IMG/VR virus record: IMGVR_UViG_3300047276_000505
Coordinates: 1-57,682 of that record
Source: a virus
Lineage: Duplodnaviria > Caudoviricetes
Strand: one strand, 5' to 3'
Length of the DNA stretch: 57,682 bases
The notes under the pieces were generated by a model. It was not told the origin of the DNA and did not search any database. It saw nothing but the letters and a program-made list of their open reading frames with translations. Positions 17,744-25,841 of this stretch are shown one piece after another. Position 1 is the stretch's first letter. Every line of letters starts with the position of its first letter. A program made the translations under genes and the position numbers.

Positions 17744-19270
17744 GTGCCTGCATATCAGCATCTTGCCTACCGACGTAATGCGCGAGCGGCTGCACGCAGG
17801 CAACAGATTCGTCCACCAAAGAACCTGGAGACTCTTCAACAAGCCAGGGATGACTTTGGTTTCTTTTGTGATTATGTAGCAGATAAACCACCGGCCGAGC
17901 ATCACAAAGAATGGCACCGGCACTTTGTAACAAAAGAGGATAGTAATTGCCTCCTTAAGATTGCTGGACCCAACATCGATCTACTTGCACCACGGGGTTC
18001 GGCTAAAAGCACGATCCTTGGCCTGTTTACGGCGTGGGCTATTGGTGTACACACCATGGCCAAGAAGCCACTGCAGATTCTTTACTTGTCGTACACGGTT
18101 GATATTGCACGTTCTAAGTCTGCAACCATCAAACGAATCATTGAAAGCAAGCGATACCAAGAAGTCTTTCCTACCGTACGTCTTCTGAAAAACGTCACGA
18201 GTAATGAGTACTGGTCGATTGATCACAAGTTTGCTGGCATCGACACCACCGGTGAAGAACAATTCACACTCTGCGCCGCTGGTCTTAAAGGTTCGGTGAC
18301 CTCCAAGCGTTCTCACCTGGTCATCATTGATGACGCCATCAAATCCGCAGCGGACATCTCCAACCCTGACATTCGTAAACAGATGCAGGACAACTGGAAT
18401 GCTGTGATTGCACCCACCATGTTTGAAGGTGGTCGTGCCATTTGCCTTGGGACCCGTTTCCGTCATGACGACATTCATTCCACGACTTTCAACCCACAGA
18501 ACAACTGGATGCAGATTGTTCTCTCCGCCATCCTGAACGATCCCAAAACCGGAGAGGAAAAGTCGTATTGGCCGGAGATGTGGTCTCTGGACTACCTGCG
18601 GGAAAAGAAACGGCAGGCGCCGATTGCCTTCTCGTTCCAGTACATGAATCAGATCGTCAGACAGAACGAGCTGTCCCTGGCGCCAGAGCTAATTGTTAAG
18701 GCGGAGATCGCTACGGAATTTGATGCGCTTGGTGTGGGTGTGGACCTGTCGGCGGGCACGAAGGAGAAGAATGACTACACGGTGATGGTTCTGGGGGGAA
18801 GAATCGGAGATCAAGTGCACATCATTGATTACCGCCGTCTGCGCGTCATGGGCAACCTGGAAAAACTGGACGCCCTCAAGGAACTTCTGAATGATTGGTC
18901 AATCCTTGGCAAGGATGACAACGGTAATTACTTCCCAACTTACTCAACGTGTGACATCTGGAGTGAGGCGGTTCAGTACCAGGCATCATTGGAAGCTGAC
19001 TTCAAGCGTGTTTGTTTGAATAACGAAAGCCTTTACAACCTGATTTGGCATCCCGTCAAAGGTTTCCGTTCTGACAAGTTGGCACGCTTCCGTGGAATTA
19101 TGGGCATGTTCGAGGATCGCAAGATTATCTTTAATCGGTTCCGTAACTTCACGGCTATGTTTGAGGAATTAACTAACTTTGGTGTCAGTAGTCACGATGA
19201 CTGCGTAGACGCTTTGGTTTGGTTGGTGACCGGTCTGGCAAGAAAAGGTCAGCTCCAAATTGATTACTGA
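17744..19270 (+). CDS. terL: Terminase large subunit
   Basis: Walker A APRGSAKST, Walker B VIIDD, coupling motif LGTR, nuclease GVDLS...NDYT and HDDCVDA. Confidence 0.95.
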   Translation: MPAYQHLAYRRNARAAARRQQIRPPKNLETLQQARDDFGFFCDYVADKPPAEHHKEWHRHFVTKEDSNCLLKIAGPNIDLLAPRGSAKSTILGLFTAWAIGVHTMAKKPLQILYLSYTVDIARSKSATIKRIIESKRYQEVFPTVRLLKNVTSNEYWSIDHKFAGIDTTGEEQFTLCAAGLKGSVTSKRSHLVIIDDAIKSAADISNPDIRKQMQDNWNAVIAPTMFEGGRAICLGTRFRHDDIHSTTFNPQNNWMQIVLSAILNDPKTGEEKSYWPEMWSLDYLREKKRQAPIAFSFQYMNQIVRQNELSLAPELIVKAEIATEFDALGVGVDLSAGTKEKNDYTVMVLGGRIGDQVHIIDYRRLRVMGNLEKLDALKELLNDWSILGKDDNGNYFPTYSTCDIWSEAVQYQASLEADFKRVCLNNESLYNLIWHPVKGFRSDKLARFRGIMGMFEDRKIIFNRFRNFTAMFEELTNFGVSSHDDCVDALVWLVTGLARKGQLQIDY

Positions 19271-20437: not shown

Positions 20438-22726
20438 ATGGCCGACGCCAAAGCCAGGCTTCAAGAAATCATCAACGCTTATCTTGATAAAGATAGCAAT
20501 ATTGTTGTTGATACTGGCATTGTGGCGGCTCACATCGCCCAGATGAAACTTTTTGGTATTCGTCAGGGCGTTGAGTTTTTCCCCGGTCAAGATAACTTCG
20601 GTGCACAGCGCAAAGATTTTATCGACCGGGTGTTGAAGTACAACCGGATGGATACGCGCCTGGATTCCATCTGGGAGTATTTCCTTTGTGATGGCCAGGG
20701 CCTTTTCTACATCCGCCCAACCAAAGCAAACTATCGCCTCTATTACTTCCGTCAACATGAGTACCGTGCGTACTACAACGTTGATGGAGAACTGGATGAA
20801 GTGGTGATTATCTACAGTTATAAGGTCAAGCGTGGAAACGGTTTTGGCGATCAAATTAATACTACTAACCTGACCGGCAACCAAAGTACTTACAACCCTG
20901 GGGCAAAGCGTTATATCCGTCTATCGATCAAAGCAAACGAAATCGAAGAAACCCATTCAGAATCCGAACTGACGTTCGACATGCCGACGTATTCCATCAC
21001 TGGTAATACCAAACAACTCAAGAATTCTCTGGGCTTCATTCCTTGTGTTGAGATTCTCAATAATCCACAAGGTTTCTCGTCCGAGGGTGTTGGTGAGTTT
21101 GATTCCATGGCGAATCACATTGTCACCCATGACGACTTAATGCGAACTATTCGCAAGAACATCACATTCTTCGGTAACCCAACGCTGCTTTCCTCCAGGC
21201 CCAAGACCGATCTGATTGAGTCCGGTGGCGATGGCATGGTCCAGCGTCCATCAATTGCAGCAAACTCTGGTTTTGCCAGCCCATCACCGATGAGTCGGTC
21301 GATGTTTAAGGCCGATCCTGTTAGCCGTGGTGTTGACGGTCAACTTCGTGTTCCACGCGTTATCGCAAACCTGGAGCCAAACGACCGTGTTGGTTACATC
21401 GTTCCTGATGCAATTACTGGTGACCAGAATGCTTTTGCCCGGCAGTACCGCGAGGAAATTCGTACTGCTCTTGGCGGTGTGGATGAGCTGTCGATTTCTG
21501 CTGGTGTTACTGCAACTGAATACAAATCCCTATTTGGGCGCGTCGCTGCGACATCTAAGAAAAAAGCAAATGCCATTTATACCCACGGCATCTGTAGGTG
21601 CCTTGAGTTAATTATTTATCAGGAAGAACAACTCTTCCGTTCCACACTTGCAGCTGCAGCTGGAATTGAGAAGCCAGTGCCTCTGCCTCCTGGTGCACCA
21701 CCGGATGCTGAGCAAGGTTATCAGGATGCTCTTCAGGCTTATAACGACCAGCTCAAAAAGCTTATGATGGCTTTAATTGAGACCCAGATGATTCCACCTG
21801 GGGTTACTGGTCTCATTCCTGATGGTGATGTCACCGTTCAGTGGCGTTGGTTAGGTCCTGTTTATGAGGACTCAACCCAAGACGTGCTCAACAACTCAAT
21901 TGTTGTAAGAAATTTGCAAGAGTTAGGTGTTGATAGCATTGAAGCACTGAAATACCTCTTCCCGTCTAAGACGGATGAGGAACGGGCCTCGATGCTCTCG
22001 GGGTTCCCGTTCAGGATGGTGAACGAATTACAGGGTGCATACTCTCAGTTCGCTCGCCTTGTGGGGGGAATGATGCAAACTCCCCACCCGCAGGCACCGG
22101 ATCTACCGATGGCTGCGGATCCAAGATTGGATTTAACTCCATATCTGTATCGCACCTTAGAAGCTCTACAAAAGGAGATGAGTTATGCAGGACGCTACCG
22201 TCCAATCGATCCCACAGACGAGCCAAGTTCCGGCAGCGGTGGCTCCCAGCAGCTACGTGGCACCGGCACCCAGCAGCTACCAAGCAGCTCCGGCCCCACA
22301 GGCAGCTCCAGTGGCGTATCAAGTGGGTACGAGTTACCCCCAAGCCGTTCCGCAGGCGGCCCCCAGCTACCAATCCGCCCCTACTCAGTACGCCCCCCAA
22401 TCCCAGTCGGAGGCTCCGAGCAGCCCATGGGAATCGGCGTTCAACAAGGTGGTGAACCTGCTGAGCAGTCCAGTTCAATCCCCGTTCCAGGGTCAACAAT
22501 CTCCGACGACTCAGTACAGTCCAGCCAACTACGGTCTGGCCAGCGGCCAACCTACGCAACAATCGGCTCCGCAGACCTGGCAAGCCAACCAGACATTCTC
22601 GCCCAACTCTTCCCCAACCTCCTCCAATCTATCCTTGGAGCAGGTGTCGGAACTCCTGGGGTGGAGCCCGGAAAGCCAGTACGTGGTAAGCGCGTACGGT
22701 CTGGAAGCACCCGCAATCCTAAATAA
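20438..22726 (+). CDS. Portal protein with a long low-complexity C-terminal tail
   Basis: Position between TerL and scaffold/MCP; size; motifs GFIPCVEI.N.P...G.GEF and V.WRW.GP. Confidence 0.8.
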   Translation: MADAKARLQEIINAYLDKDSNIVVDTGIVAAHIAQMKLFGIRQGVEFFPGQDNFGAQRKDFIDRVLKYNRMDTRLDSIWEYFLCDGQGLFYIRPTKANYRLYYFRQHEYRAYYNVDGELDEVVIIYSYKVKRGNGFGDQINTTNLTGNQSTYNPGAKRYIRLSIKANEIEETHSESELTFDMPTYSITGNTKQLKNSLGFIPCVEILNNPQGFSSEGVGEFDSMANHIVTHDDLMRTIRKNITFFGNPTLLSSRPKTDLIESGGDGMVQRPSIAANSGFASPSPMSRSMFKADPVSRGVDGQLRVPRVIANLEPNDRVGYIVPDAITGDQNAFARQYREEIRTALGGVDELSISAGVTATEYKSLFGRVAATSKKKANAIYTHGICRCLELIIYQEEQLFRSTLAAAAGIEKPVPLPPGAPPDAEQGYQDALQAYNDQLKKLMMALIETQMIPPGVTGLIPDGDVTVQWRWLGPVYEDSTQDVLNNSIVVRNLQELGVDSIEALKYLFPSKTDEERASMLSGFPFRMVNELQGAYSQFARLVGGMMQTPHPQAPDLPMAADPRLDLTPYLYRTLEALQKEMSYAGRYRPIDPTDEPSSGSGGSQQLRGTGTQQLPSSSGPTGSSSGVSSGYELPPSRSAGGPQLPIRPYSVRPPIPVGGSEQPMGIGVQQGGEPAEQSSSIPVPGSTISDDSVQSSQLRSGQRPTYATIGSADLASQPDILAQLFPNLLQSILGAGVGTPGVEPGKPVRGKRVRSGSTRNPK

Positions 22727-23150
22727 CTATGCTCTCCAACTGGAGAACATGCTGGATAGCGCTGTCACCTGGGGCACTGAAGCCAAGGGTCTGATCGAAC
22801 AGTACGCTGAGTTCGCTGTGAACGAGCGTCAGGAGAACCAGGCTTACAACGAGATCCTGACCAATCCTGACATCCTGAGCGATTACACGCTGCAGTTCTT
22901 TGGCCCCGAAGGTCCGTACCCTGTGTACGAAAACGAGCAGGAACTGGTGACCCCTGGTTACCCGACCCAGCAAGTGGATCCGAACGCCAACTACATGCCG
23001 GCTCCTCCTTCCGCTGCTGCCCCTCAGCAGCCCGAGAACTTCTGGGGTACCTTCAAACAACAGATGGATTACGATCCTTCGCAAGCATGGCGGATTCTGA
23101 ACCAGGCTCAGCCTCAGGTTGTTGCTAACAAACTATTTGTGATGGAGTGA
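22185..23150 (+). CDS. Putative capsid scaffolding protein
   Basis: AGGAG SD; Pro/Gln/Ala-rich and acidic; lies before the MCP. Confidence 0.7.
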   Translation: MQDATVQSIPQTSQVPAAVAPSSYVAPAPSSYQAAPAPQAAPVAYQVGTSYPQAVPQAAPSYQSAPTQYAPQSQSEAPSSPWESAFNKVVNLLSSPVQSPFQGQQSPTTQYSPANYGLASGQPTQQSAPQTWQANQTFSPNSSPTSSNLSLEQVSELLGWSPESQYVVSAYGLEAPAILNNYALQLENMLDSAVTWGTEAKGLIEQYAEFAVNERQENQAYNEILTNPDILSDYTLQFFGPEGPYPVYENEQELVTPGYPTQQVDPNANYMPAPPSAAAPQQPENFWGTFKQQMDYDPSQAWRILNQAQPQVVANKLFVME

Positions 23151-23154
23151 TGCC

Positions 23155-23754
23155 ATGCGTGGCGCTCTTAAATATGGTGTGCCAATTGCTGCTGGTTTAG
23201 GACTGGCGGCTTATGGTGCTCAACAAGGAGCTACGCCAGGAGAAGCTGCACTGATGGGTGGCGGTGCCGCCCTCGGTGGTGCAGCAGGTCTTCTTGGTGC
23301 TCGCGCACTTGCTGGTAAGTACAACCCTGCGTTGATTGCAGCAGCACAAAAAAGCGTAACCGGTCTTGGCAACAAGATTGGTGACGTTGCCCGCGATTTA
23401 CCTGAAAAAGGTTTACGTCGTGCAGCTGCTAATGTCGCAGCTGATGTTACTTCTGCAGTTGATACTCGCCTTTTTGGTGATCCCAACGCTGGTATTTCTG
23501 CGGCGATTCCTTTCCCAACCCAAGGCGTCCAACGTAATATTGGCAAAGGCATTGCTGCTGGCTTAGTACCAGCTTCTGCTTTAGCTGCTGGTATTGGTGG
23601 TGCTGCGGCTGCCCAAATTCCAGGTGCACTTGGCGTTCCAGGATTTGCGCCTCAACCGATTGACTTAGGTACGGATCTTATTGATCCCGAATCCTATGGT
23701 TCCAGCAACTCTTTGGGTGCTCGTTACAAGGCCCCAACTATGCAGTACGTGTAA
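23155..23754 (+). CDS. Ala/Gly-rich putative membrane-active virion protein
   Basis: Glycine-zipper helices; contains LAGKY. Confidence 0.7.
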   Translation: MRGALKYGVPIAAGLGLAAYGAQQGATPGEAALMGGGAALGGAAGLLGARALAGKYNPALIAAAQKSVTGLGNKIGDVARDLPEKGLRRAAANVAADVTSAVDTRLFGDPNAGISAAIPFPTQGVQRNIGKGIAAGLVPASALAAGIGGAAAAQIPGALGVPGFAPQPIDLGTDLIDPESYGSSNSLGARYKAPTMQYV

Positions 23755-23852
23755 CTTTTAAGTTCACTACCTGCTAAAATTTGTGTTAGATAAGACGTAA
23801 ATGTCTTTATCTTTCACCCGATAAAAACATCGACACTGGAGGATAAACCAAG

Positions 23853-23864
23853 GTGTTTATTGAT
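23853..23864 (+). CDS. Major capsid protein, exon 1 (MFID)
   Basis: GGAGG SD at 23838-23842, GTG TTT ATT GAT; in-frame TAG two codons into the intron; joins in frame to exon 2. Confidence 0.85.
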
Positions 23865-24689
23865 AGCTAGTTCAGATCCTGGTAGGTATAACCTTTCAAG
23901 ATTTGGTAAATAGCTCCGTGGTTGCAGTCAAACTTTTCCGCAATCTTTCGATAAGAAAGTCCTGCTTCTTTTAAAGCTTTGATCTGAGCCACATCCTCCG
24001 AAGAAAATTTTCTCAAAGATTTCTTCGGTGCTCCTTTACTGGCAAAGCCATTGTTTTTATAACAACCGCTCTTCCAGGCTCTTGTTAAATTCTCTTGTTT
24101 GGTAACGATCTCAAGATTGTCAAGTCGATTATTCCTCTTGTCGTTATCTTTGTGATCAACTTGCAGGGAAAAGTTACTGGTTCCGTGAGAACGCAGATCT
24201 AATCCCAAAAAAGCAACAGCCATCAAGACATGAAGATGAAAACGCTTTCTCTTCCCATCGACAAGAACTGAAACACGGTCATAAACACTGGTCGAACGAA
24301 TTGGGATCTCTTGAAAATATTCTTGGTTATCGGGATCAAGTTGTTTTTCAAAAGCTTTTCCTTCTTCTGTTAAGTAAAGATTACCAAATCCAGGGACAAG
24401 TTTTGGATCCATGTTGTTCATGAACAGCTTTCCAAAGCGTAACATACCTCAACTGAACGCTCAACGTTGTCACCCCACCGAGCAATCGATGGGTGCAAAC
24501 CGGATGAATTCAGGGAAGCCCTAACGTAAAGACGAGGGTAATCCTGAGCCAAGCCAATCAAGTCGTGATTGGAAGGTGCAGAGACTACTGGGTGTAACAC
24601 GATCTTGTTACGTAATACCAGATTTAGCGTCCGGCATCCCACAGGGATGAAGAGATAGTCCACCCCTCTAAGAAACTAGAGACCAGGAG
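23865..24689 (+). ncRNA. Group I self-splicing intron (IC3-like)
   Basis: Exon ends in U and intron ends in G; core elements AATTCAGGGAA (P), AATCCTGAGC (Q), GTGCAGAGACT (R), AAGAGATAGTCC (S); IGS CGTTGTCA at 24465-24472 pairs with both exons. Confidence 0.92.
23867..24445 (-). CDS. Intron-encoded HNH homing endonuclease with C-terminal HTH, antisense to the intron
   Basis: HVLMAVAFL...VDHKDNDKRNNRLDNLEIVTKQEN; SYRKIAEKFDCNHGAIYQI. Confidence 0.9.
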   Translation of the reverse strand: MLRFGKLFMNNMDPKLVPGFGNLYLTEEGKAFEKQLDPDNQEYFQEIPIRSTSVYDRVSVLVDGKRKRFHLHVLMAVAFLGLDLRSHGTSNFSLQVDHKDNDKRNNRLDNLEIVTKQENLTRAWKSGCYKNNGFASKGAPKKSLRKFSSEDVAQIKALKEAGLSYRKIAEKFDCNHGAIYQILKGYTYQDLN

Positions 24690-25841
24690 AACGACTTTCC
24701 AAAGATTCTGGGTGCGGAACTTTACCGTCCTCACCCTGCTTACATTGCTGAAATGGCAGTGGAGCCTGTGGTGGTCCACGACTTCACCCGTCAGCCTGGT
24801 CAAACCGTTCAGTTAGACCGCTATAAGTTCTGGGGTACCCCTGGTACTAAGGACAGCCGTGAGCGCGTGTCCGACCAGACCATCGGTACGGCCAACAGCC
24901 GTAACATCACCAAGGAGAAAGTCCTGGTGGTGCTTAAGGAGTACACCGGTCCTGCGGATCCGGGCGACCCCACCCAGCCTTCGACCTTTAAGATCGCTCG
25001 TGAAACTCTGATTACCGCCCAGCGCCTGCTGCTGGACACCGGTAACCTGAACATGTTCCACCAGTCGATCGGCAGCCTGACCCTGCTCGACGACTATCGC
25101 CGTTGGCGTGACCGCGTCTTCATTGACGAACTTGCCAAAGCAGAAGCTAATGGTGCTGCTGGCACTACCCAAGGCGGCTACTACTTCGCTGGTGGCAAGA
25201 CCAAGGATTCCTCTGGTCGCGTGTCCTACACCACCACTGAGTACGGCAACGAAGTTCAGCAGTTCCAGGTTCGTACCGACCTGCTGACCGTTGTTAAGGA
25301 TCTGCGTAAGCGCAACGTGCCGACCTTCGCTGATGGTCTGTATCGCTGCATCTGCGATCCTACTTTCATGATGCACCTGCGTCGTGATCCTGACTTCCGT
25401 GAGATCGCTCGCTACAGCGGCAACCCTGGCCAAGGCATGTACATGGGCAACCCCATGATGCCTAACAACGCCAGCTTCTACATGGGTCCCCAAGCTGGTC
25501 AGGGTTACTTCCTGGCTGGTGAGCCCGTGATGCCTACTGGCGTCCAGTTTGAAGGCGTGAAGTTCTTCGAGTCGACCAACTTCCCGGTCAAGAACGTGAC
25601 CGCCTCCTTCGACGGTGGTTCCACCTACGCTTCCAAGGAAGTGGCTCAGGGTTACTTCTTCGGTCCTCAGTCCGTTGGCGTGGGTATCGGCGGTCCTAAC
25701 GCGCAGGTGCTCATCAACAACAACGATGACTTCAGCCGCTTCATCATCCTGATCTGGCAACTGTACGCTGGTTTCGAGATCCTGAACAAGGACTTCGTGA
25801 CCACCGCCTTCAGCTTCGTCCAGGACGACGGCACCGTCTGA
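24690..25841 (+). CDS. Major capsid protein, exon 2 (spliced product about 387 aa)
   Basis: NDFPKILGAELYRPHPAYIAEM continues into the 362-aa ORF; strong codon bias; follows portal and scaffold. Confidence 0.85.
   Translation, partial: NDFPKILGAELYRPHPAYIAEMAVEPVVVHDFTRQPGQTVQLDRYKFWGTPGTKDSRERVSDQTIGTANSRNITKEKVLVVLKEYTGPADPGDPTQPSTFKIARETLITAQRLLLDTGNLNMFHQSIGSLTLLDDYRRWRDRVFIDELAKAEANGAAGTTQGGYYFAGGKTKDSSGRVSYTTTEYGNEVQQFQVRTDLLTVVKDLRKRNVPTFADGLYRCICDPTFMMHLRRDPDFREIARYSGNPGQGMYMGNPMMPNNASFYMGPQAGQGYFLAGEPVMPTGVQFEGVKFFESTNFPVKNVTASFDGGSTYASKEVAQGYFFGPQSVGVGIGGPNAQVLINNNDDFSRFIILIWQLYAGFEILNKDFVTTAFSFVQDDGTV

Follow-up and report, generated by a model that had tools for sequence, protein, structure and literature searches.

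Introduction

The closest described system to the one considered here is that of mycobacteriophage LittleE, whose major capsid gene, according to the available text of Pope et al. 2013 (PMC3706429), contains a group I-type intron of ~820 bp with an endonuclease open reading frame (ORF) on the bottom strand. The LittleE intron is spliced in vivo (reverse transcription-polymerase chain reaction and N-terminal sequencing) and a related intron that lacks the endonuclease is found in sister phages; the same text cites a capsid-gene intron in the lactococcal phage Tuc2009 and introns in psbA of cyanophages. The locus described in this report is in IMG/VR virus record IMGVR_UViG_3300047276_000505, a phage sequence (Duplodnaviria; Caudoviricetes) of 57,682 nt that was analysed as a whole and is termed the window. 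The source record (57.7 kb) has an estimated completeness of 73%. The window displays an 825-nt insert at positions 23865–24689, which is very probably a mobile group I intron that interrupts, behind codon 4, the gene for the HK97-fold major capsid protein of a freshwater, S-EIV1-like cyanophage.

The capsid intron of the window and that of LittleE have in common the interrupted gene, a length close to 820 bp, a U that ends exon 1, a G that ends the intron, a bottom-strand ORF and an endonuclease-less relative. They differ in the ORF, which is LAGLIDADG-like in the available LittleE text (HNH in a figure legend), and in the host, which is actinobacterial for LittleE. In addition, splicing was demonstrated for LittleE, whereas splicing of the cyanophage intron is deduced. 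An earlier note on this DNA, made from the sequence without database searches, implied that an arrangement of this type is rare; this was overstated, since the LittleE capsid-gene intron with its bottom-strand endonuclease had already been published. It is well supported that the capsid intron is a further example of a kind of element known in other phages.

Other phage group I introns carry HNH nicking endonucleases, e.g. the intron that interrupts the DNA polymerase gene in cyanophage Pf-WMP3 with the nickase I-PfoP3I (available text of PMC3428280). Introns of this type resemble the capsid intron in having helices at the P7.1/P7.2 position, and the ORF of the capsid intron matches I-HmuI. 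Their endonuclease genes however occupy P6-P7 or other loops in the sense orientation, and the host gene is one of DNA metabolism, whereas the gene described here is antisense, is situated in the P1 loop and interrupts a structural gene; protein identity is low. Group I introns of nuclear ribosomal DNA with antisense His-Cys box endonuclease genes (available text of PMC9548176) share with the capsid intron an endonuclease gene opposite to the ribozyme strand. These introns differ in being eukaryotic and in having another endonuclease family, with expression, as that text describes it, by way of RNA polymerase II signals and spliceosomal introns. The words "antisense", "opposite" and "capsid" are absent from the available part of a review of bacterial introns (PMC3984707).

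Splice junction and intron-less alleles

The features of the interrupted gene are the following.

23839..23843, + strand: Shine-Dalgarno sequence GGAGG of the capsid gene; GGAGGAT is kept upstream of the start in the listed intron-less and intron-bearing relatives
23853..23864, + strand: coding part of exon 1, GTG TTT ATT GAT (M F I D); joined directly to exon 2 in phage S-EIVl and in 59/80 viral contigs
23865..24689, + strand: 825-nt group I intron that begins behind U23864 (5′ splice site) and ends with G24689; Rfam model RF00028, with boundaries set by intron-less alleles
23868..23870, + strand: in-frame TAG, where reading of unspliced RNA would stop after MFIDS
24690..25841, + strand: exon 2 of the major capsid gene, 383 codons and stop; the spliced product translates to 387 aa

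The GGAGG sequence is nine bases from the GTG start codon, and exon 2 opens with AAC GAC TTT CCA (from position 24690), in frame with the ATG at 24753. The earlier note had given this same layout, i.e. GGAGG, the four codons GTG TTT ATT GAT, an 825-nt insert ending in G and AAC GAC TTT CCA in frame, and all of it is as stated there.

A megablast search of the phage collection yielded a sole match, Synechococcus phage S-EIVl, with 83% identity. The alignment begins at window position 24692, two bases into the proposed exon 2. In this cultured relative the sequence GTG TTC ATT GAT ACC GAC TTT CCT is unbroken and opens a 383-aa ORF (MFIDTDFPKILGAELYRPHPAYICEMAVEP...). A scan of viral contigs with the capsid protein gave 596 relatives among 599 candidate stretches, and the best 80 were kept. 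Fifty-nine of the 80 show GTG TTY MTY GAY followed directly by AAY/ACY GAY TTY CC. In the remaining 21, exon 2 is preceded by the 3′ terminus of the intron (...GACCAGGAG), six of these being cut by the contig end. Because the intron-less alleles are uninterrupted at the exact site, they fix the boundaries of the intron. The intron-less homologues read MFID(N/T)DFPKILGAELYRPHPAYI..EMAVEP, which bears out the junction ATTGAT-AACGAC (hyphen at the splice site) that had been proposed. Distant homologues (22%–52% identity to the query) start within a few residues of the same N-terminus and keep the motif D..FP.LLG..L.P.P.Y.A.

It may be argued that the insert is not spliced, that the capsid protein starts at ATG 24753 (MAVEP), and that what lies upstream, the GTG codon and the ribozyme-like stretch, is relic sequence next to a free-standing HNH gene. 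The mechanical ORF listing does place the start of the capsid ORF at this ATG (24753..25841, 362 aa), as do public gene calls, and several database capsid proteins start exactly at residue 26; a shortening of the capsid protein by 25 aa in gene calls had been foreseen in the earlier note. However, alignment with the intron-less homologues shows the 25 residues before MAVEP to be kept in frame in all 59 intron-less contigs and in the distant homologues, and they form N-terminal helices of the fold in the structural model described below. There is no Shine-Dalgarno sequence ahead of ATG 24753, and the ribozyme helices covary, a property that relics would not keep. An unspliced insert is thus extremely improbable.

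The in-frame TAG is part of a palindrome, CTAG, at 23867–23870, which gives a TAG on each strand. An in-frame stop is present in 73/73 distinct introns of the collection described in the next section, at intron codon 2 in 68 and at intron codon 7 in five. Such in-frame stops are common and are thought to protect ribozyme folding, according to the available text of the review by Hausner et al. (PMC3984707). The 5′ splice site is just 12 nt from the capsid start codon, and a ribosome initiating at this codon would presumably cover the 5′ strand of P1.

Ribozyme structure and covariation

RF00028 (group I intron) matches positions 24440–24682 on the + strand with a score of 90.9 bits (gathering cut-off 50, E-value = 4.9e-22); no other Rfam family matches the window. 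The introns of three relatives score 90.5–93.7 bits. A score of this size shows a pattern far beyond chance, and the group I assignment thus holds up against the covariance model.

A search of viral contigs with a 20-base core motif found 119 further loci. The pooled sets, with the window counted, hold 112 intron copies with both flanks, some contigs having been fetched twice. These copies represent 73 distinct introns; when the comparison is limited to the flanks and to the initial 30 and final 250 nt, 62 distinct sequences remain, and covariation was counted on these 62. Two intron lineages are seen: clade 1, which includes the window, and clade 2, where exon 1 is ATG TTY ATC GAT. The elements of the ribozyme are listed below.

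23861..23867, + strand: P1 5′ strand UGAU-AGC; pairs with GUUGUCA at 24466–24472, 7/7 pairs standard in 62/62
23870..23875, + strand: P1 extension 5′ strand GUUCAG; pairs with 24453–24458 in 62/62 and closes a 577-nt loop
24453..24458, + strand: P1 extension 3′ strand CUGAAC, from the same pairing counts
24465..24472, + strand: internal guide sequence CGUUGUCA (DNA CGTTGTCA); 24466–72 in P1, 24465–68 with exon 2 AACG as P10
24474..24493, + strand: P2 hairpin with GCAA loop; compensatory changes at five pairs, internal C.A mismatch in 35/62
24500..24506, + strand: P3 5′ strand; pairs with 24628–24634 in 62/62; pair 24504–24630 is A-U in 47 and G-C in 15
24510..24547, + strand: P4-P5 domain, from the Rfam alignment; paired in 62/62, nearly invariant
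24548..24577, + strand: P6/P6a; double changes at 24558–68 and 24559–67
24581..24587, + strand: P7 5′ strand with bulged A24582; pairs with 24656–24661 in 62/62; one U-A to C-G change
24588..24621, + strand: additional hairpin at the P7.1-type position, between P7 and P3′; its internal loop, GUAAUA, is conserved, and the Rfam consensus has no counterpart of it
24635..24649, + strand: P8; double changes at 24637–47 and 24640–44
24666..24681, + strand: P9 with a GAAA/GAGA-type loop; double change at 24669–78

The guide sequence, the U.G wobble in P1 and P10 are as described in the earlier note. The P1 pair 23861–24472 is U-A in 47 sequences and C-G in 15, a compensatory change between the coding exon and the guide. 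The splice-site pair U23864.G24469 is a wobble in 62/62, and every pair of P10 (AACG with CGUU) is standard in 62/62. Rfam's own alignment of P1 misses the true long-range P1 and has non-standard pairs marked. The P1 extension shows double changes at three pairs (G-C/A-U, U-A/C-G, C-G/U-A) and closes a loop from 23876 to 24452. Part of the P1 closure originally drawn thus stands, namely GUUCAG/CUGAAC with a loop that had been put at about 580 nt and measures 577 nt. The other part does not: AGC/GCU (23865–67 with 24459–61) was rejected as the main continuation of P1, its third pair being present in 45/62 sequences, versus 62/62 for the contiguous 7-bp P1.

The pairs of P6, P6a and P9 are likewise all standard in the 62 distinct sequences. 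The hairpin between P7 and P3′ folds in all 62 with swapped helices, CUGG/CCAG versus GGCG/CGCC and GUAAC/GUUAC versus GAAUG/CAUUC.

Two contigs, L060 and L148, have clade 1 exon flanks with the clade 2 version of the P7-P3′ hairpin; this mosaic suggests that the two intron lineages have recombined. The same 20-base P5/P4′/P6 word is present in a different group I-like core, found in the viral contigs L112, L120, L130, L187 and L128. Its P1-P2 region, the element after P7 and the 3′ flank all differ from those of the capsid intron, and it is presumably an intron in another gene. A pairing between the Shine-Dalgarno sequence and intron bases 24446–24452 was also considered and dropped, as it would comprise just 4 bp and the region is missing from the endonuclease-less forms.

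Relationship to other group I introns

The earlier note termed the intron IC3-like, i.e. akin to the cyanobacterial and plastid tRNA-Leu class, and an intron of this subgroup could perhaps have been taken from the cyanobacterial host. There are shared features. The 16-mer AATCCTGAGCCAAGCC (24540–24555, R element) occurs in many cyanobacterial tRNA-Leu(UAA) introns, and cyanobacterial tRNA-Leu introns also share GGAAGGTGCAGAGAC and the AGAGTCC-type P7 strands with the capsid intron. P2 is present in the capsid intron and a P5abc extension is absent; both groups have a compact core. The shared R and P7 words are therefore real.

The tRNA-Leu introns that were fetched (L223, L235, L272, L207 and others) however go straight from P7 to P3′, whereas the capsid intron has a covarying hairpin of 34–37 nt in this place. 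By blastn, likeness to the tRNA-Leu introns is confined to core positions 62–141, i.e. to P4-P6. The tRNA-Leu introns also differ in their site, the tRNA anticodon loop, and in having no endonuclease. The best nucleotide matches to the core are instead phage introns in terminase or DNA polymerase genes: introns of Klebsiella/Escherichia jumbo phages and of the terminase genes of Vibrio phages align over positions 52–236 (75% of the core) including the extra hairpin, with 72%–77% identity. These differ from the capsid intron in having no endonuclease gene, in being several per gene and in their host genes. Helices P7.1 and P7.2 mark subgroup IA, as given in the available texts of PMC3428280 and PMC3984707. 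From these comparisons the IC3 label is rejected, and membership of the tRNA-Leu class, with or without a host origin, is quite unlikely.

With respect to the IA criterion of P7.1 plus P7.2 (PMC3428280, available text), the capsid intron has an element at the P7-P3′ position, with a conserved GUA after its inner helix; this element folds as one composite hairpin rather than two in tandem, and P2 is present. The subgroup may be IA2, IA3 or another. No published subgroup assignment was found for the Vibrio and jumbo phage introns.

In Vibrio phages vB_VpaM_R16F (L322 712–3202) and 1.193.O (L323 1362–3635) the gene for the terminase large subunit is annotated as four or five short pieces that are ~230 nt apart. 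Two of the gaps in each terminase gene match the core of the capsid intron. It appears that each of the two genes is interrupted by several small group I introns that lack an endonuclease.

With the 16-base word, group I introns were likewise recovered from tRNA genes of the gammaproteobacterium Luteimonas aestuarii (L254), of an archaeon and of an Omnitrophota genome (L209 and L248 are among the contigs). The Luteimonas aestuarii tRNA intron has an insert after P7, as does the capsid intron.

The antisense endonuclease gene

23867..24445, − strand: HNH homing endonuclease gene, 192 aa as listed, with conservation from about the ATG at 24412 onwards; the stop and last codons overlap the P1 5′ strand

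This ORF fills the P1 loop on the strand opposite to the ribozyme. It matches Pfam HNH_3 with 39.8 bits (cut-off 24.8), phrog_59 with an E-value of 1.5e-27 and the solved nicking endonuclease I-HmuI (1U3E) with an E-value of 1.5e-4; Pfam matches to helix-turn-helix domains are weaker and fall below their cut-offs. An HNH gene lying antisense within the P1 loop, as the earlier note had placed it, is thus found.

A minus-strand frame of at least 170 aa is open in 100/100 endonuclease-bearing copies (82 of clade 1 and 18 of clade 2). In the 58 distinct endonuclease proteins the catalytic residues D-H...N...N are invariant, and a C-terminal helix-turn-helix is conserved. For 295 pairs among 46 distinct coding sequences of modal length, the median ratio of nonsynonymous to synonymous substitution rates (dN/dS) is 0.098; the anchor motif for the frame was present in 95/100 copies.

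The endonuclease family stands isolated. A search of 5.8 billion proteins gave 97 clusters with at least 54% identity followed by a drop to 36%, and tblastn against the phage collection gave one weak match with 33% identity. As far as seen in these searches, the family appears to be confined to the capsid intron.

Distribution and mobility of the intron

A tree was built from the capsid gene body of 82 rows, 22 of which carry the intron. Intron presence needs 13 changes on it, of which well-supported branches force at least 10. The closest capsid relatives of the window, L003–L005 (97% identical), have no intron; L046 and L047 have it and L053 and L054 do not. Endonuclease-less introns of 268–277 nt are found in both clades (12 copies, 10 distinct). 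They keep the last codons of the endonuclease ORF, which suggests that they are deletion derivatives.

In the first set of fully flanked intron-bearing alleles (15 contigs and the window) the junction is ATTGAT-AACGA in 16/16. The same junction is present in 29 of 60 intron-less alleles, and the other 31 vary in the P1/P10 and likely recognition region (CTTGAT, ATCGAT, AAT, ACC, ACT). These site variants could be resistant alleles.

One pair will be used to show the flanking differences. L047 (with intron) and L053 (without) differ at 39 sites between −13 and −165 and at 13 sites in the 600 nt downstream, whereas the stretch −166 to −600 is identical in the two. Over the same 73 rows, the intron needs five changes on a tree of the upstream 250 nt versus nine on the capsid-body tree. 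The patchy distribution, together with upstream sequence that travels with the intron, indicates that the intron is actively mobile. In near-identical pairs of unlike intron status, such as the one above, the differences are concentrated immediately upstream of the site, which appears to be the mark left by homing, its co-conversion being skewed towards exon 1.

A related proposal accepts that the intron splices but holds that the main present role of the antisense endonuclease is competition between phages, by damage to the capsid genes of rivals, or antisense tuning of capsid expression. The strong purifying selection on the ORF means that the protein matters, interference of a phage intron endonuclease with a competitor has been published (available text of PMC11620839), and the endonuclease gene is the sole convincing minus-strand gene in the + strand block 8049–38890. 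The present data however do not separate such a role from plain homing. Co-conversion tracts and a patchy distribution are what homing predicts, and, as in a selfish cycle, introns without the endonuclease and alleles without the intron continue to exist. A main role in competition or tuning is thus unlikely.

Contigs from RNA libraries

Up to 26% of the sampled words were found in metatranscriptome runs. In 4/4 such runs for which contigs were searched (three studies), Logan contigs join 23864 to 24690, skipping exactly 825 nt, and intron-carrying contigs are also present in these runs. The joined contigs are unstranded. In run X1 the 29 exon 1 letters of the joined contig are those of the window allele, a spelling found in 0/59 intron-less contigs; these 29 letters are assembly overlap only. 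Contig depth is greater in exon 2 than in the intron in runs X3 and X4 and is flat in X1, depth being no measure of expression. The exact-junction contigs are compatible with splicing and fall short of proof.

The interrupted gene and its neighborhood

Exon 2 matches phrog_1357, "major head protein", with an E-value of 7.5e-17. A phmmer search of PDB sequences with the capsid protein gave no meaningful match, and a fold search was therefore used. An AlphaFold2 model was built for the intron-less homologue L004, whose exon 2 is 100% identical by tblastn, from an alignment of 34 sequences. The mean pLDDT (predicted local distance difference test) is 79.5 and the pTM (predicted template modelling score) is 0.77. 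The best Foldseek matches of the model in the PDB are phage capsid proteins, that of cyanophage P-SCSP1u (E-value = 3e-12) followed by those of Pan3 and GP4; HK97 is also listed. Residues 1–28, which include the 25 lost to gene callers, are predicted to be N-terminal helices. Upstream of the capsid gene are a large terminase (17744–19270) and a portal-like virion protein (20438–22726). Fold, family and place in the head module agree that the interrupted gene is an HK97-fold major capsid gene, and the label of major capsid gene in the earlier note was correct.

The GenBank record of S-EIVl (KJ410740.1, 60784–62010; L001 2912–4138) does not have the full capsid gene. Annotated there are AHV82227.1, a "hypothetical protein" on the minus strand, and AHV82228.1, a + strand fragment of the C-terminal part, and the capsid homologue is the 383-aa + strand ORF at L001 2987–4138. 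The same spurious mirror ORF is found in the window at 24813–25760 on the − strand.

An AT-rich inverted repeat (AGATAAGAC...GTCTTTATCT) is located at 23789–23814, in the gap that separates the upstream gene from the start of the capsid gene, and S-EIVl has a repeat like it. The transcript of the upstream gene, or that of the antisense endonuclease, could end here; the repeat was not among the calls of the terminator scan. The portal-like ORF 20438–22726 (phrog_20475) overlaps the next long + strand ORF (22185–23150) by ~540 nt, and the overlapping parts of both are rich in S, G, P and Q.

Proposed splicing and homing cycle

The reading that is very probably correct, a mobile group I intron in the capsid gene, may be set out as follows. 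In the late transcript of the + strand, the UGAU of exon 1 and the first intron bases would pair with the guide GUUGUCA, 600 nt downstream, and form P1 across the 577-nt loop. Guanosine would then attack after U23864, P10 (AACG/CGUU) would align exon 2, and the exons would be ligated after G24689, as group I chemistry predicts. The product GTG TTT ATT GAT AAC GAC... would encode the 387-aa capsid protein, and unspliced RNA would yield just MFIDS-stop. The I-HmuI-like HNH gene, with its C-terminal helix-turn-helix, would have to be read from the minus strand, in the direction opposite to that of the entire structural operon. The enzyme may nick or cut intron-less capsid alleles in co-infection, and repair would copy the intron and roughly 165–285 nt of upstream flank into the recipient, i.e. 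homing. The intron-less, endonuclease-bearing and endonuclease-less alleles in the population would represent stages of this cycle.

Several points weigh against this reading. On their exon 1 side, three of the four RNA-contig joints extend over just 29 letters. Phages that lack the intron, or DNA present in the libraries, could be the source of the joined contigs; DNA alleles without the intron are common (59/80). A patchy distribution could also be obtained by ordinary recombination among co-infecting phages, with no action of an endonuclease. The activity of the putative endonuclease, its target and whether it nicks or cuts are extrapolated from the distant I-HmuI match alone. Conservation does not extend to the first 11 codons of the ORF as listed, and the start codon is uncertain, the start probably being the ATG at 24412 or that at 24421. 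No sigma-70-like promoter or intrinsic terminator for the endonuclease gene was found in a scan of 23600–25000; the single promoter-like site that it gave is internal, no terminator was called, and this yield does not exceed that of shuffled sequences.

Significance

As far as the literature searched reaches, this is the first intron in a structural gene of a cyanophage: no published description of an intron in any cyanophage structural gene or S-EIV1-like phage was found, the S-EIV1 genome paper being outside the search. The annotation of the capsid gene is corrected for a widespread lineage of freshwater cyanophages, in which public calls lose 25 N-terminal residues. The endonuclease gene lies antisense within a phage gene that ranks among the most heavily transcribed. 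It is conceivable, though improbable, that this antisense gene is more than a passenger: being transcribed against the late capsid message, it may through its RNA or its protein link capsid production to the state of the intron, or it may act as a weapon against the capsid genes of intron-less competitors in co-infection. If true, this would explain the strong purifying selection on the endonuclease ORF across a widespread cyanophage lineage. The alleles, i.e. the empty site, the intron with endonuclease and the intron without it, over 73 distinct introns, represent a natural data set for the homing cycle.

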